The notes under the pieces were generated by a model that ran no database searches, had not been told where the DNA came from, and saw only the letters and a list, made by a program, of their open reading frames with translations. Positions 20,895 through 28,084 of a stretch of DNA of 29,738 nucleotides are shown here, piece by piece. The translations under genes and the position numbers were made by a program. Source of the DNA: Acidobacteriota bacterium (GTDB lineage: Bacteria > Acidobacteriota > Polarisedimenticolia > JACPZX01 > DASXTC01); the NCBI GenBank assembly GCA_046758155.1, contig JBHHZN010000001.1, positions 1-29,738 on the forward strand, read 5' to 3'. Every line of letters begins with the position of its first letter. The first letter of the stretch is position 1.

Positions 20895-21560
20895 ATGTCG
20901 ATTCATCTTCAACGCGACATGGAACATCTCAAGAAGGCGATCCTCTCTCTCGGGTCCATGGTGGAGGAAGCCACCAACAAGTCCATTCTCGCCCTGGTCG
21001 ATCGCAGGCCCGATCTGTCCCAGGAGGTCATCAACGGCGACGCCCACATCGACCGGGAGGAAGTCGAGATCGAAGAGGACTGTTTGAAGATTCTCGCCCT
21101 CCACCAGCCGGTCGCCGCCGACCTCCGCTTCATCATCGGCGTCTTGAAGGTCAACAACGACCTGGAGCGCATGGGCGATCTCTGTCTCAACATCGCCGAG
21201 CGGGCCGCCTACCTCTGCTCTCACGAACCCCTGGTGCCCACCGTGGAGTTCTCGAGCATGGCGAAGCACACCCTCACGATGCTCAGGAGAAGCCTCGACG
21301 CGCTGATCGGCCGGAACACCGTGCTGGCGCGCGAAGTTCTTGCGATGGACGATCGGATCGACGAGGCGAACAGACGGATGTTCGCCCGGCTGCAGGATCT
21401 GATGCGGCAGGATCCCGAGCTGATCGATCGATGCGTGCAGTTGATCTCCGTCTCGCGCTACCTGGAACGGATCGCGGACCTGACGACCAACATCGCCGAG
21501 GACGTCGTCTTCATGATCGACGGCGAGCTGATCCGTCACCAGCCTCCCGGAGGATCATGA
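20895..21560 (+). CDS. phoU: Phosphate signalling protein PhoU
   Basis: LHQPVAADLR, DLERMGD and LERIADLTTNIAEDVVF repeats; last gene of the pst operon. Confidence 0.93.
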   Translation: MSIHLQRDMEHLKKAILSLGSMVEEATNKSILALVDRRPDLSQEVINGDAHIDREEVEIEEDCLKILALHQPVAADLRFIIGVLKVNNDLERMGDLCLNIAERAAYLCSHEPLVPTVEFSSMAKHTLTMLRRSLDALIGRNTVLAREVLAMDDRIDEANRRMFARLQDLMRQDPELIDRCVQLISVSRYLERIADLTTNIAEDVVFMIDGELIRHQPPGGS

Positions 21561-22204
21561 GGCGCGCCGGCGGGACCGTGAAGCTCCCCCTGGTCCCGGG
21601 GCGCCGGCGCCTGCCGGCCGAGCAGCCGCTCGAGCATCCGCTCGACGGCGGGAGGAAAGGACCACTGCTGGATCAGGACGATGACTCCGTCGCGGTCCAT
21701 CACGTAAAGCAGGTTCGGCTTCAACCCGTACGACGCCCGCACCGTCTCGCCGGGAGGCTCCACCAGGACCGTGGCGGTGGTCCTCAACAAGCCGGCGGCC
21801 TTGCGGGCCTGGGCGATCCGCTGCCTGATCCGGTAGGTCTGGCGCCAGGGCGCCCCGGGGTGCTCCTCGCGCGAGTACAGCAGGAAGAAGGCGACGTCCC
21901 GGTCGCTGAATCGCTCCCGGATCCGCTGCATGGCCGAAGCCTTCGACCGGAATACGTTTCAGGAGTACGAGCCGAATTCCAGGACGGCGATGCGTCCGGC
22001 CCGGGCCTCGGAGAACCGGACGGGGGTTCCGTCCAGATCGTAGGCCCAGAAGTCCGGGGCCTCGGCCCCCTTGATCGCCCGGCGCGAAGGAATGAGAGGA
22101 AGGGCATCCGGGGCAGGCAAGGCCCCTCCGGCCCCCCTGCCTCCCGCGGGCGCGGAAGCGGAGACCGCGAGCAGCATCATCACCTGGACGAGGAACGGTC
22201 GCAT
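21536..22204 (-). CDS. Iodothyronine deiodinase-like (thioredoxin-fold) selenoprotein; TGA at 21959-21961 read as Sec (222 aa, U82)
   Basis: ORFs 21959..22204 and 21536..21931 are in the same frame and join as APDFWAYDLDG..VLEFGSYS-TGA-NVFRSKASAMQ..FFLLYSREEHPGAPW..SYGLKPNLLYVMDRDG. This corresponds to the deiodinase FGSxT-U and YIxEAHP motifs. N-terminal signal peptide present. Confidence 0.8.
21932..21948 (-). promoter_or_regulatory. Bacterial SECIS-like hairpin immediately 3' of the UGA
   Basis: The mRNA reads UGA-AACGUAUUCC-GGUCGAA-GGC-UUCGGCC: a 7-bp stem (one G-U pair) whose loop starts with G, 17 nt after the UGA. Confidence 0.6.
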
Positions 22205-22398
22205 CGATTCGCCATCTCAAACAAGCCTCGTCGCGGAAAGTATTCCCCCCCCGACCGCCTCGCGGCAACGTTGCCTGCGCCGGGCCCCCAGGTGCTGACT
22301 CCTCCCGGGCCCGGGCCGCCTCATGATCGACCCACGCCGACGAGATCGAACCGGTCGCCCGATCCCTCGCCCAGGAGAGAAGGGAGTCCGGCCTCGGC

Positions 22399-23958
22399 TC
22401 AGGCGGCTCCGGCGCTGGCGCTGGCGCCGGCGCGGACCATGTCGCGGGGAAGGTCCATCAGCCGTGTCCCCTGGACCGAGCGATGGACCTCCAGGAAGGT
22501 GTTCGCGTCGGTCAGGTTTCTCAGGGCGCGTGGAAGGCCGATCATGCGGGAGATCAGCCATGGGGAGAACGCGGCCGCGAGCAACAACTGGTTGATCTGG
22601 CTTGGCCGGAAGCGGACCTGCTGGGCCACGCGGTAGACCCTCGCCACCTGCCGGTAGAACTCCCCGATATCGAGTTTTGTCTTCATCAGGGCGGTGAACA
22701 GTGAGAAGGCCGGATGCGTCACCACGCCTCGATCGGCGAGCTCGGGGCTCTGCCGGAGGACCTCCTCGTACAGGACGGTTCCCGGCAGCGGCGTGGCGAT
22801 GGTGAAGCTGGCGACGCGGATCCAGGGCCGGTGGGCCTTGAGGAACCGCACGATCTCGTCGAAGTAGGCGATATCCGCATCACAGGGAATGACGATCTGC
22901 GCGAGGACGGAAGCCCCAGCGCGCGCCGCGGCGCGGATGGCCTCGCTGTTGGTGTCCACCGTGTTCCTCTTGCTGTAGTTGTCGAGCTGCTCGTCGGTCA
23001 CCGCCTCGATGCCGAAGAAGATCCACTTGAGACGTCCCTCCCTGATCCAGCTCTTGAAGCGTTCTTCCTGGCGCATGTAAAGGTCCGTGCGCGTCTCGGC
23101 GGTGATGTAGAAACTCATCCTTCGAGGCAGAAAGTCCGAGCTCAACCACTTCAAAAGCGGATCATGCAGTTCACGGATCTGCTTCTCGCTGCCCTGCATG
23201 AAGATATCGTCGGCCAGCAGGACGGTGCGCGCCAGGGGAGGCAGCGAGCGGAAATCATGCTTGACGTTTTCCAGCGACGCCAGCGATACCTTCCGGCCGT
23301 GGGTCATCCAGACACTGCAGAAGTTGCAGTCGAACGGACAGCCTTCACTCATCTGGCCGATCCCCGCGGGCCTGAACCCCTGCAAGTACGATCTCCAGTA
23401 ACGCCCGGGAAGCAGGTGCCAGGCGTAAGGACGCAGGTGCGACATCGGCCGCGCCATGGTCGGTCCTGGAGTCAGGGTCCACCGGCCGTCTTCCCGATGG
23501 AAGAATCCCGGGAAAGATGCGGGGCGTTCTCTCGTCTCGGCGATCTGCGCGACCAGAGACGCCAGCGCCATGTCACCGCCACGAAAGCAGATCAGATCGG
23601 CGGCGGAATTGTAAAACGCCTCCGGTTCCTCGGAAGGCGCCGTTCCGCCGAGAACGATCGTCGTCGCCGGGCACGCCCGGCGGAGGTCGGAGGCCGCCGC
23701 GATCGCCTCCTCGCCGTTGGAGGTGAACGTCAAGGAGATGCCGACCAGGTCAGGAGGATCGGTCCGAACTCTCTCGAGGAAACGCCGCCGTTCTCCACGG
23801 ATCCTGAAATCGACGATCTCGATGTCGGCGCCCTCGATCTGGCCGGCCAGGCGGATCTGGGCCAGCGGAGGATAGGTGGCGATGAGCGGCAGGCCGAACC
23901 GGCGGCTGATGGGGTTGATATCGGGCTCGATCAGGACCACACGGGGTCGACGGTTCAC
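22399..23958 (-). CDS. Cobalamin-binding radical SAM enzyme (class B methylase type), resembling hopanoid C-3 methylase HpnR
   Basis: N-terminal B12-binding-like domain (YPPLA, DLVGIS, IVLGG), CxxxCxxC in GCPFDCNFCSVW, then ADD, ETRTD, FFGIEA and TPLPGT. GTG start behind a GGAG-rich SD. Confidence 0.8.
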   Translation of the reverse strand: MNRRPRVVLIEPDINPISRRFGLPLIATYPPLAQIRLAGQIEGADIEIVDFRIRGERRRFLERVRTDPPDLVGISLTFTSNGEEAIAAASDLRRACPATTIVLGGTAPSEEPEAFYNSAADLICFRGGDMALASLVAQIAETRERPASFPGFFHREDGRWTLTPGPTMARPMSHLRPYAWHLLPGRYWRSYLQGFRPAGIGQMSEGCPFDCNFCSVWMTHGRKVSLASLENVKHDFRSLPPLARTVLLADDIFMQGSEKQIRELHDPLLKWLSSDFLPRRMSFYITAETRTDLYMRQEERFKSWIREGRLKWIFFGIEAVTDEQLDNYSKRNTVDTNSEAIRAAARAGASVLAQIVIPCDADIAYFDEIVRFLKAHRPWIRVASFTIATPLPGTVLYEEVLRQSPELADRGVVTHPAFSLFTALMKTKLDIGEFYRQVARVYRVAQQVRFRPSQINQLLLAAAFSPWLISRMIGLPRALRNLTDANTFLEVHRSVQGTRLMDLPRDMVRAGASASAGAA

Positions 23959-24132: not shown

Positions 24133-24496
24133 CGAGGCGATCCGCCCGACCCCGTCCGAGAGAAGGAGCCTGCCTCCGCTGCGCATCGACCTACACGAGA
24201 ACGGCTTCCTCGCTCGACGGGCGTCCCCGGATTCACCCCGGATCTCGAAGCGAACGCGTGACCGTGGAGGACGGCACCGATCCTCGAGGATCGACCGCGC
24301 CGCCATCCGGGAACGCTTCGTTCGATCTCGTTTCTGGGAACGGAGTCTCCGGCGCCCTTCGAACAGCGCCCGATATGTCTCCTGGTTTCCCGAGGCACGT
24401 GACGGCGCCGGCCGGCCTGGACCTGGTCGCGCCGCCCGGGCGCGCATCGAGCCGGCGAACATCCTCTTCGCATGACACGATAGGGATCATCCACCG

Positions 24497-24505
24497 TGAT
24501 ACAAT
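24497..24505 (+). promoter_or_regulatory. Extended -10 promoter candidate for the cytochrome operon
   Basis: TG-A-TACAAT about 125 nt upstream of ATG 24631. Confidence 0.4.
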
Positions 24506-24630
24506 GTTTTGCACCGAGACCCATCGGGGAACACGTGGACCACGCAGAGGAGATCCTGTTTGCGCGGAATCCGGGCGTGGAGTACCGAGCCGGGCAGCCT
24601 GGAGGGGCTCCTGTTGACGGCCGCAGCGCG

Positions 24631-25881
24631 ATGAGGCGACTCTTATCACCTCCTGTTGTTTTCTCGGGCACGGTCCTGGCGCTGTGCCTGGCGCTGCTCG
24701 CCGGGGTGGATCCCGGCGCCCGGCCGGCATGGGCGGCCTCGGCTGAAACGTTTTCCGCCCTGGTGCACAGGCTCGACGCCCAGGACTGGGTGCCGCCATA
24801 CTTCGCCGGCCATGTGCCGGTGTTCAACGCCCCGCGGGAGGAACAGCTCCTGCGCCGGATGTCGAAGGAATCTTTCACCCTGGTACCCGTCGGCCTCTAT
24901 GCGTATCGAACCTCACCCTTGCGGGTCGAGGTCGGCAAGCGGCTCTTTCACCGTTATGACTGGGGAACGTCGCAGCGCTGGCGATCCGACGAGCGATACA
25001 TGTTCTATGCCCTCGGTGTGTCCACCTTCCGGGATTTTCAGTCGCGCTACGGTGTGCTGGGCGGCACCGACGCGCAGCTCGTCGGAATCGTCGGCATGCC
25101 CGCGCCGGATGGGCGCATCGATTACGGATGGTCGTGCGCCTTGTGTCACGAGGGTGCCGGAGACGGCGGACGCCCCACTCCCGGTGTTCCGAACCACCTG
25201 TACGAATACGGCCGCGTCCGTTATCAGGGACTGGTCGCCCACGATCCCGCGCCCGATTTCGCGCGTCCCGGCGCCACCGATCACGACATCCCGATCGGGC
25301 ACCTCGCGGCCCTCGGTCCGGGGCGGATGGACATGAACGCCGATCGCGTCGAGAATCCCGTCAAGATCCCGCCCCTGTGGGGATTGAAGGAGGTACGCAC
25401 CGGGATCTTCGCCAACGGCAGCATCGGCAACATATGGTTTGTTCTCGGCATCCACAACGGCGGGATCTCCTATCCCTCATCGGAGCTGCTCGAAGCTCTC
25501 GTGGCGTACGTGCTGAGCATCGAACCCCCGCCGAACCCGCGTCCGAAAGGAGCCGCCGAACAACGGGGAGAGAAGGTGTTCGAACGCGCCGGCTGCCGCA
25601 CGTGCCATGCGGGCCCCTACTACACCAACGGTGAGGTCATCTCGCTGGAGGTCATCGGCACCGATCCGGAACGCGCCCGGCAGGAGTTTCCGAAAGGGTA
25701 TCGCGTGCCGACCTTGCGCCGCCTTGATCTGCAGCGCCTGTTTCTTCACGATGGCTCGATCGGATCACTCGGCGATCTTTTTTCACGCGAGCGGCTCAAA
25801 ACGACTGGGGGCCACCTGTACGGCCTGGACCTATCCGAAGCGGAGAAACGAGATCTTGTGGCATTCCTCCTCTCACTCTGA
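24631..25881 (+). CDS. Exported di-haem c-type cytochrome, RoxA/CcP-MauG superfamily-like (paralogue 1)
   Basis: Signal peptide from ATG 24631. Haem motifs CALCH and CRTCH, plus GPGRMD, IGTDPER, GYRVPTL, FLHDGS and GGHLYG..LVAFLLSL. Confidence 0.8.
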   Translation: MRRLLSPPVVFSGTVLALCLALLAGVDPGARPAWAASAETFSALVHRLDAQDWVPPYFAGHVPVFNAPREEQLLRRMSKESFTLVPVGLYAYRTSPLRVEVGKRLFHRYDWGTSQRWRSDERYMFYALGVSTFRDFQSRYGVLGGTDAQLVGIVGMPAPDGRIDYGWSCALCHEGAGDGGRPTPGVPNHLYEYGRVRYQGLVAHDPAPDFARPGATDHDIPIGHLAALGPGRMDMNADRVENPVKIPPLWGLKEVRTGIFANGSIGNIWFVLGIHNGGISYPSSELLEALVAYVLSIEPPPNPRPKGAAEQRGEKVFERAGCRTCHAGPYYTNGEVISLEVIGTDPERARQEFPKGYRVPTLRRLDLQRLFLHDGSIGSLGDLFSRERLKTTGGHLYGLDLSEAEKRDLVAFLLSL

Positions 25882-27192
25882 CCGCACTCCAGAGGCCTCG
25901 CCCGTCCGGCGTCGCCGGGCGAGCGCCTGGTGGCCGGGAACCGCCCTGGCCATCATGCTGAGCATGCCTTGGGGATGCGCGCCCGCGAACAAGACGGTCC
26001 CCGCAGAAAAAGGCGACCGATTGCGGGAATCGGGCGATCTGGTCGCGGACCTGAAGAGAAGAGGCTGGGAGCCGCCCTACTTTCAGGGCACCATCAGGAC
26101 ATTCCCGGAGGGGTACCACCTGAGCCTGGCCCGGCGGGCGCTGGCGAGCCGACAGACACGATCACGATCGGTGGATTCACCTACAGGACGTCTCCGGCCC
26201 TGATCGCCGCGGGGCGGGAGATATTCCGGAATCACGACTTCGGTTCGCACCTTTTTTGGGACTTTCGCAGAGCGATCGACTACTCCACGGGAATCACCGA
26301 TGCAGCCGAGTACTCGAGACGCTACGGCGTCAAGCGCGATGGGGAAGGGTATTTCGTCGGCCTGGTCGGAGTGAAAAGAAACGACGGGAAGGTCATGTAT
26401 GGACATTCCTGCGCCCTGTGCCACGCGAACGTCGGCGAGGACGGCGCGATCGTGGAAGGAATGGCCAATCATGACTATGACGTCGGGCTATACTACGAGG
26501 CCCTGCGATCGACGATACGCGATGTGGACCAGATCTATCTGGGCGACGCGGGCCTCGACGTGCTGGGCTCCCAGGGAGCCGGGCGAACCGATTCCACCAT
26601 GGACGGGTTCTACGCCCCGATGCGGATCCCCCACCTGTTCGCGCTGAGGGCCTTCGAGCACGGCCTGCGGGCCAACGGCGACATGCCCAACCTGTGGATC
26701 CAGTGCTATCGCAACCTCAACGGCGCGTACGCGGTGGATTCGGACATCATGGAGGCCCTCATGGCCTTCCTCCTCTCCATCAAAGCCCCGCCGAACCCAC
26801 GCCACCTTGGAGAGAGGGAAAGACACGGAGAGACGATCTTCCGTGGGCAGAGATGCCATCGCTGCCATCTGCCCCCTTACTACACGAACGGGCGGGTGAT
26901 CGACTGGAAATCGATACGCACCGATCCCGACCGCATCCACAACGGCTACCCGAAAGGATACAAGGTCCCGAGCCTTCTCAGGCTCGATCGCTACCGCTTC
27001 TATCTTCACGACGGCTCCCTGACCGCACTCGGACAACTGTTCGATCCGGCGCGGCTCGAACCGACGTACCAGGCGCCGGGCATTCCGCCGGCTCGTCGCA
27101 AACCGGGTGTGGGAGTGCCGGGCCATCGTTTCGGCCTGCGCCTCTCGCCATCGGATCGTGCGGATCTGATCGCTTTTCTCGAGTCGCTCTAG
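25856..27192 (+). pseudogene. Second di-haem RoxA-like cytochrome (paralogue 2), with an apparent single-base frameshift at about 26135-26160; start uncertain
   Basis: The frame of ORF 25607..26203 gives a lipoprotein-like signal (RRRRASAWWPGTALAIMLSMPWGC) and LVADLKRRGWEPPYFQG, homologous to LVHRLDAQDWVPPYFAG of paralogue 1. The frame of ORF 25930..27192 carries TYRTSP, CALCH, CHRCH, LHDGS and GHRFG. Confidence 0.7.
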
Positions 27193-27286
27193 CGACGATG
27201 CCTCCGCCGCGTCTCCAGTGCGAACCCATCCGGCAAGCCATCACCGTTCACCCGAGAACCACCGGGAAACGACCCGGGAGGATCCC

Positions 27287-28084
27287 ATGAAGACCATCGC
27301 CCCGTCATCCTCGTTGCTCATCGTCTGGATCGCCCTCGTCGCCGGGTGCGCCGAGCCGGCCCGATTCCCCTCGGGACGCGTCGTCGATCTCACCTATCCG
27401 TTCGACTCCACGACCATCTACTGGCCCACGGAACCGCCCTTCCGGTACGAGCGGAACACGGAAGGGGTGACCGAGGCGGGACATTGGTACGCCTCGGGCC
27501 GCTTCGCCGCCGCGGAGCACGGCGGCACCCACATCGACGCCCCTTTTCATTTCTGGGAGGCCGGATCGAAGCTGGATGCCATCGACCCGGGCCGGCTCAT
27601 CGGCCCCGGGATCGTGGTTGACGTCTCGCGATCGTGCGGCAAGGACCCGGATTACCTGGTGACGGTCGATGACCTGCTGGGCTGGGAGAAACGCAACGGC
27701 AAGATCCCCGACGGAGCCATCGTCCTGCTGAAGACCGGTTTCGGCGCTTTTTACCCCCGGCGGGATCGTTACCTGGGAACGGCGGAGATGGGCGCGGCGG
27801 CGGTCGCGAAACTCCATTTCCCGGGTCTGCACCCGGACGCCGCGCGATGGATCGCCACGCAGCGTTCCATAGGGGCCATCGGGCTGGATACGGCGAGCAT
27901 CGATCGGGGACAGTCGGTGGATTTCGGCTCGCACATCGCGCTGTTCGAGCACGACATTCCCGCCCTCGAGAACATCGCGAACCTGAGCGATCTGCCCGAA
28001 GTCGGATTCGACATCATAGCTCTGCCGATGAAGATCGGCGGCGGCACCGGGGGCCCGCTGCGCATCGTGGCGATCCTGCCGTGA
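27287..28084 (+). CDS. Cyclase-family (kynurenine formamidase-like) metal-dependent hydrolase, lipoprotein
   Basis: Lipobox LVAGC, VVDLTYP, EHGGTHIDAPFHF (HxGTHxDxPxH), HFPG, GLDTASID, LENIANL and ALPMKIGGGTGGPLRIVA. SD GGAGGA before ATG 27287. Confidence 0.9.
   Translation: MKTIAPSSSLLIVWIALVAGCAEPARFPSGRVVDLTYPFDSTTIYWPTEPPFRYERNTEGVTEAGHWYASGRFAAAEHGGTHIDAPFHFWEAGSKLDAIDPGRLIGPGIVVDVSRSCGKDPDYLVTVDDLLGWEKRNGKIPDGAIVLLKTGFGAFYPRRDRYLGTAEMGAAAVAKLHFPGLHPDAARWIATQRSIGAIGLDTASIDRGQSVDFGSHIALFEHDIPALENIANLSDLPEVGFDIIALPMKIGGGTGGPLRIVAILP

Follow-up and report, generated by a model that had tools for sequence, protein, structure and literature searches.

Two short hypothetical open reading frames of an Acidobacteriota bacterium probably form one gene for an exported deiodinase-family selenoprotein

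The window analysed here is a stretch of 29,738 nt (contig JBHHZN010000001.1, positions 1 to 29,738) from the metagenome-assembled genome (MAG) GCA_046758155.1 of an Acidobacteriota bacterium (2.31 Mb, 348 contigs, 81% complete, 65.5% GC). On its minus strand lies one reading frame of 222 codons, which runs from ATG 22204 to W222 (21539) and is followed by a stop TGA at 21538-21536. The sole internal stop of this frame is the TGA of codon 82, which stands within the residues VLEFGSYS-U-NVFRSK. Public protein collections list two separate products from it, one of 81 aa (P0009) and one of 131 aa (P0004). Thus, the statement of an initial annotation, made from the sequence alone, that the gene had been split by the caller of open reading frames (ORFs) is literally true. 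We conclude, with a probability of roughly 85%, that the two short hypothetical ORFs are one gene for an exported, thioredoxin-fold selenoprotein of the deiodinase family. Four observations carry this reading: a homologous domain that continues across the UGA, Cys in the corresponding column of homologues, a hairpin with the geometry of the lineage, and genes for SelB and the selenocysteine tRNA (tRNA-Sec) in the MAG.

An upstream in-frame stop sits four codons before ATG 22204, giving an open frame of 226 codons, so this ATG is the earliest possible start. The GC content at third codon positions (GC3) in the shared frame is 0.83 upstream of the TGA, 0.89 downstream of it, and 0.93 in the folded core after it. 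For comparison, GC3 is 0.82-0.84 in neighbouring genes and 0.53-0.70 in overlapping alternative frames. The initial proposal that the two ORF fragments belong to one gene is thus borne out by the single TGA, the coding signature on both sides of it, and the one domain that both sides match jointly. The segment FFLLYSREEHPGAPW, which the initial annotation had noted downstream of the TGA, is found at residues 106-120, C-terminal of codon 82. The last 22 residues are Gly/Pro/Ala-rich, with low model confidence and an atypical GC content at codon positions (0.96 at first positions, GC3 0.68).

Table 1. Coordinates of the selenoprotein gene and its features in the window
Feature	Position	Strand	Remarks
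Complete selenoprotein coding sequence	21539..22204	-	222 residues; P0003 is the version with C written for U
In-frame UGA, codon 82	21959..21961	-	read as selenocysteine (probable); in the family's catalytic column; matched to the mouse Dio3 Sec position
Thioredoxin/peroxiredoxin-fold, deiodinase-type domain	21605..22072	-	residues 45-200; Sec82 at the N-terminus of helix 83-98
Y110-S-R-E113-E-H115-P116 motif	21857..21877	-	equivalent to the Tyr/Glu/His proton-relay residues of deiodinases
Probable Sec-type signal peptide (MRPFLVQVMMLLAVSASA)	22151..22204	-	Arg n-region, hydrophobic core, VSA/ASA cleavage motifs; read by eye
Candidate bacterial SECIS hairpin GGUCGAA-GGC-UUCGGCC	21932..21948	-	7-bp stem, apical loop from nt 21 (U of UGA is the start of the count)

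P0003 matches the Pfam family PF00837 (T4_deiodinase) with 32.9 bits (cut-off 27), with residues 45-173 aligned on model positions 75-212 of 237, and matches AhpC-TSA with 29 bits (cut-off 26). The NCBIfam model NF038285 (deiodinase_rel, "deiodinase family protein", a hypothetical equivalog of 347 aa) is matched with 64.9 bits over model positions 179-321. This match covers just the C-terminal catalytic domain of the model and stays far below its equivalog cut-off of 250. Among solved structures, the best sequence match is the catalytic core of mouse Dio3 (4tr3), with an E-value of 1.7e-7. Specifically, FGSYS-U82 aligns on FGSCT-C, in which the last residue is the selenocysteine (Sec) position, occupied by Cys in the crystallised mutant, and EEHPGAPW aligns on EAHPSDGW. 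Both the PF00837 score and the Dio3 alignment agree with the initial annotation, which had assigned the gene to the deiodinase family and had placed the TGA exactly at the Sec position of the animal enzymes. In a protein-language-model atlas, the selenoprotein falls among clusters of "deiodinase family protein". By these sequence matches, it is a member of the PF00837 deiodinase-like family.

When 1.84 billion cluster representatives were searched exhaustively with HMMER, 1299 homologues were returned, 301 of them at E<=1e-10. In the best 148 of the 1299, the column of codon 82 holds Cys in 109, Ser in 28, Ala in 4, and Thr in 3, in line with the initial expectation of Cys or TGA at this position. 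Residues G78, S79, Y110, E113, H115, and P116 are near-invariant among the homologues, and each is kept in the selenoprotein; in an alignment of 135 sequences, E113 is invariant and Y110, H115, and P116 are each at least 90% conserved. The nearest homologues (52/52) match both PF00837 and NF038285. The 28 of the 148 nearest homologues that have Ser in place of the catalytic Cys may, judging from this substitution, be redox-inactive.

The AlphaFold2 model, built from 135 sequences, has a mean predicted local distance difference test (pLDDT) score of 85.4, and residues 45-200 are mostly above 90. In the model, U82 lies directly before helix 83-98, which is the canonical active-site position of the thioredoxin fold. 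A Foldseek comparison with the PDB, ranked by E-value, places the extracytoplasmic proteins ResA, DsbE-like, and Etrx2 (TlpA-like oxidoreductases) on top. Among the matches listed, the top query-normalised template modelling scores belong to Dio2 (0.63) and Dio3 (0.62), and Dio3 also has the top identity (25%). Residues S79, S81, Y110, E113, and H115 correspond to a Ser/Thr/Tyr/Glu/His network that is proposed to relay protons in Dio2 and Dio3 (PMC11592359). W120 is the conserved Trp after HP. Of the deiodinase-specific insertion (beta-D, alpha-D, and loop-D with its conserved His), helix 126-140 corresponds to alpha-D, and the insertion loop is ~5 residues shorter than that of Dio3. In the 4tr3 alignment, the QH of the Dio3 segment YVIPQH, which we take from the Dio3 numbering to be the loop-D histidine, has no aligned counterpart in the selenoprotein.

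There is no cysteine anywhere in the selenoprotein, and Sec82 is therefore its sole redox-active residue. The motif at the active site is U-N-V-F, so that a CxxC or UxxC redox pair of the TlpA/ResA type is not present. The peroxiredoxin motif PxxxTxxC is also absent: position -7 from U82 is Leu instead of Pro, and position -3 is S79.

Directly after the UGA, the mRNA reads UGA-AACGUAUUCC-GGUCGAA-GGC-UUCGGCC, and the paired segment resembles a selenocysteine insertion sequence (SECIS), which fits the way in which bacterial SECIS elements have been described (PMC1088965). Of the 59,416 TGA triplets that the MAG contains, 312 (0.53%) precede a perfectly paired stem of 7 bp or more whose loop contains GG and begins at nt 19-24. 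When 119 genomes from this class were searched with PF00837, 10 of them had canonical FGS[YF]T-U-PPF genes, with one TGA each. In 10/10 of these genes, a GGU(C) loop begins at exactly nt 21, on stems of 5-7 bp that vary in sequence with the pairing kept (GCGCUC/GAGCGC, CGGGC/GCCCG, and GGCGGGA/UCCCGCC). Canonical Sec-containing deiodinase-like genes with the nt-21 loop are those of class relatives L107-L116, and also of L018, L020, and L025. A comparable hairpin is absent from the 4/4 non-Sec homologue genes with DNA on hand (one Cys form and three Ser forms). Folding of 41-81 nt around the UGA gives no energy signal (z +0.30 to -0.33), and an Rfam scan of 21400-22400 gives two chance miRNA matches and nothing on the hairpin 3' of the UGA. 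The energy of the hairpin alone is unremarkable, yet its geometry is specific and typical of the lineage.

The MAG carries components that decode Sec. A selB gene at C79:5492-7387 scores 324 bits (cut-off 242), and its product has the beta-barrel and the winged-helix 2 and 3 SECIS-binding domains. A tRNA-Sec gene with anticodon tca lies at a contig end (C33:7-100) and scores 75.9 bits (cut-off 47), and ARAGORN concurs.

The MAG also encodes a second Sec-containing paralogue, at C116:501-1853 (+) (locus L142), with a signal peptide and the motif LGCLT-U-PPF. It comprises a deiodinase-related thioredoxin-fold domain (NF038285, 65.6 bits) and, at the C-terminus, a pair of EF-hands; a further region has a weak likeness to DsbD_N. 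In at least four of the class genomes (L017, L021, L022, and L026), orthologues have the LGCLT-U-PPF motif and bear a hairpin with a GGUCU loop ~28 nt downstream of the UGA. Among the relatives that bear selD, SelD has an in-frame TGA in 13/14 and hence is itself a selenoprotein. Selenoproteins appear to be numerous in the lineage.

Export of the selenoprotein is suggested by its N-terminus, by the domain fusions of the family, and by the likeness to exported ResA/TlpA-type proteins. The hydrophobic core of the N-terminus is ~14 residues long, and neither a lipobox cysteine nor a twin arginine is present. A Gly/Ala/Pro-rich linker follows the predicted signal peptide up to about residue 40, with a model pLDDT of 48-72 over residues 1-40. 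In 14/52 of the nearest homologues, the deiodinase-like domain follows an N-terminal LTXXQ domain (Spy/CpxP-type, periplasmic) in one fused protein, and this speaks for an extracytoplasmic location of the family.

Several points weigh against a functional, exported selenoprotein. No orthologue above ~40% identity came to light in the 40 relatives searched, among 15 billion predicted proteins, or when genome and metagenome contigs were scanned with the protein. Conservation of the UGA at codon 82 therefore cannot be shown. The terminal branch in the tree is long (1.42, against a median of 0.57), and two near-invariant residues of the family are altered, P83 to N and A114 to E. The hairpin has an unexceptional folding energy over 25 nt (z -1.67) in a GC-rich genome, and the positional criterion applied to it was fixed only after the hairpin had been seen. 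The signal peptide, already proposed in the initial annotation, is plausible as judged by eye and from family context. The initial annotation also held that the gene implies selABCD; selB and tRNA-Sec are present, and selA and selD were not found in the 81%-complete MAG. Because relatives of the same family, order, and class (G001-G015) have selA in 15/15 and selD in 14/15, the best explanation of this gap is that the MAG is incomplete.

The divergence has further aspects. In the tree, the selenoprotein is a singleton outside the clade of the other Sec forms of the class, and Sec forms from within its family and order share 32-37% identity with it. When DNA was searched with a degenerate pattern that encodes E-F-G-S-x-[ST]-U-N-[VI]-F, the 21 matches obtained were all low-GC chance matches. 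The U-N-V-F context, which the initial annotation had called unusual, is rare, with Pro at position 83 in 134/148 homologues; it is not unique, as one Cys homologue (P0054) carries C-N-V-F.

The same features could be expected of a pseudogene, that is, of a Cys-type gene that acquired a TGC/TGT-to-TGA nonsense mutation at the catalytic codon and is decaying, the hairpin being a chance structure in GC-rich DNA. The lack of a close orthologue anywhere searched is the main argument for it, joined by the long branch, the replacement of P83 and A114, the atypical codon-position GC of the C-terminal tail, and the modest z of the hairpin. We nevertheless consider a pseudogene improbable, because the motifs are intact, the coding signature persists after the TGA, and the hairpin is typical of the lineage. 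Specifically, there is a single lesion, exactly at the codon where Sec is expected; GC3 in the core after it is 0.93; and the other catalytic motif residues are all intact. The loop stands where it does in 10/10 Sec relatives, in a geometry found at 0.5% of TGA triplets. In addition, the MAG decodes Sec elsewhere (selB, tRNA-Sec, and the second paralogue), and the sequence is identical in two samples.

These two samples also bear on an assembly or base-call error at the TGA. The coverage of the MAG is low (word depth ~6-7), which leaves room for such an error. However, Logan contigs from two runs, representing two samples of one hydrothermal vent metagenome study, cover the TGA with zero differences, and the separately assembled contigs agree at every base over the gene. 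The only variant within 1 kb is at position 22290, outside the selenoprotein gene. The contigs of both samples give TGA, which addresses the base-call check set out in the initial annotation. The assembly itself may derive from these two samples, and contigs drop rare variants, so that the agreement of the samples is not fully independent. A base-call error is unlikely, since the two separately assembled samples show an identical TGA. A genome-wide reassignment of TGA to another amino acid was ruled out: TGA terminates both the selenoprotein gene and phoU and is therefore an ordinary stop in the MAG. Taken as one alternative, error or reassignment has very little probability.

Equally hard to maintain is the view that two independent small genes of 81 and 131 aa lie here, for which speak the products given by the gene callers and an ATG (M92) 10 codons 3' of the TGA, since homology to one thioredoxin-fold domain is colinear across the TGA, strand 72-78 and helix 83-98 flank it in the model as one beta-alpha unit with pLDDT >95, and neither half is a known stand-alone domain.

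For the selenoprotein, the following mechanism can be proposed. SelB and tRNA-Sec would insert Sec82 at the UGA, directed by the hairpin, which starts 10 nt after the codon. After export, the selenolate would be positioned at the N-terminus of helix 1 and tuned by S79, S81, Y110, E113, and H115. It might then attack an electrophile (a peroxide, sulfenate, or disulfide, perhaps also a carbon-halogen bond), which would yield Se-OH, Se-S, or Se-X. Because the protein has no cysteine, an external thiol reductant would have to regenerate Sec82.

Judging from the sequence, the most likely role would be that of a periplasmic one-selenol reductase. As to its chemistry, we lean towards a peroxide/thiol-type reductase, at slightly better than even odds; some other activity is considerably less probable, and a reductive dehalogenase somewhat less probable again. 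A wider proposal, by analogy with the animal enzymes, is that the selenoprotein and the wider bacterial family are cofactor-free selenol/thiol periplasmic reductive dehalogenases, with naturally occurring iodo- and bromo-aromatics of marine and vent habitats as their substrates. We regard this proposal as rather unlikely. To our knowledge, no bacterial deiodinase-like member has been assayed for reductive dehalogenation. If the proposal were true, these proteins would use the chemistry of the animal deiodinases and act independently of corrinoid dehalogenases, and the cysteine-free U-N-V-F protein would represent a minimal one-selenol version that works on an external periplasmic reductant.

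Bacterial deiodinase-like selenoproteins, together with their Cys homologues and SECIS elements, were described by Zhang, Fomenko & Gladyshev in 2005 from the Sargasso Sea, with four Sec sequences (PMC1088965), and were met again in the GOS data in 2008 (PMC2398784). Reviews of the prokaryotic selenoproteome from 2022 and 2026 list the family (PMC9312934, PMC13188914). These sources agree with the remark in the initial annotation that the family is known in bacteria from metagenome surveys and lacks an established function. The window protein shares with these selenoproteins a PF00837 score over threshold, Sec in the FGS-x-[TS]-U column, Cys homologues, a SECIS with G in the apical loop directly after the UGA, and a presumed redox role. 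It differs from them in being a cysteine-free, long-branch singleton with U-N-V-F, whereas the canonical motif of the class is T-U-P-P-F and the reviews list UxxC. Because the family has been catalogued since 2005 and Sec forms are common in the same class, the selenoprotein is a divergent, atypical new member of a known bacterial family and not a new kind of system.

Compared with animal Dio1-3 (4TR3, 9H48), which are the best solved-structure matches by sequence and, among those listed, by query-normalised template modelling score, the window protein shares the Sec position, the relay residues, and the Trp after HP (W120). Identity is 21-25%, and the window protein has a probable signal peptide where the Dio proteins have a membrane anchor, a shorter insertion, and neither a proximal nor a distal Cys for regeneration. 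In a bacterium from a vent, thyroid hormones would not be expected as substrates. NF038285 proteins share the C-terminal catalytic domain; the window protein lacks the N-terminal ~175 model positions and is a stand-alone domain with Sec. With proteins of the TlpA/ResA/DsbE type and 1-Cys peroxiredoxins, the links are the top Foldseek E-values, the AhpC-TSA match, and the probable export, and the S-x-x-U of the window protein parallels the T-x-x-C of peroxiredoxins. In contrast to these proteins, it has no CxxC and no Pro at -7, its identity to them is 12-22%, and its Y-x-x-E-x-H-P motif is deiodinase-specific.

The selenoprotein gene is convergent with pstSCAB-phoU. The 3' ends of the selenoprotein gene and of phoU (20895-21560, +) overlap by 25 nt at 21536-21560, a stretch that includes the stop codon of the selenoprotein gene. 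Among named genomes, the best match of PstB is in an Acidobacteriota MAG (74% identity), and the next ones (57-66%) come from many different phyla, so that on PstB the phylum would be assigned only tentatively. A gap of 194 nt separates the selenoprotein gene from a gene upstream on its strand (22399-23958, -), whose 519-aa product is a B12-binding radical SAM protein with a distant likeness to HpnR/BchE (142 bits; cut-off 650). Of the 40 relatives searched, 11 have orthologues of this protein (58-70% identity), and the selenoprotein gene does not adjoin them. A functional link between the two genes was rejected, as the orthologues are without the selenoprotein gene and the deiodinase-like gene of one relative (G003) is 13 kb off. 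The pst/phoU loci of 80 other genomes have no deiodinase-like neighbour, and a promoter and terminator scan of the intergenic regions gave nothing useful. The genomic context of the nearest Cys homologues is uninformative, with contigs below 2 kb. Further along the window, tandem c-type cytochrome genes (24496-27192, +, and 27218-28084, +) with weak MauG/di-haem peroxidase-like matches are followed by a gene of the cyclase/arylformamidase family.

The general picture of selenoproteins and deiodinases is unchanged by the finding. For the annotation of the genome, two mis-called hypothetical ORFs become one probable selenoprotein gene. The finding would add a divergent, cysteine-free, exported member to a family that has been without a bacterial function for twenty years. 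In the lineage, probably one from a hydrothermal vent, Sec-containing deiodinase-like proteins fall into three or more separate clades, of which this MAG has two, and the lineage is thus a good place to ask about the function of the family.

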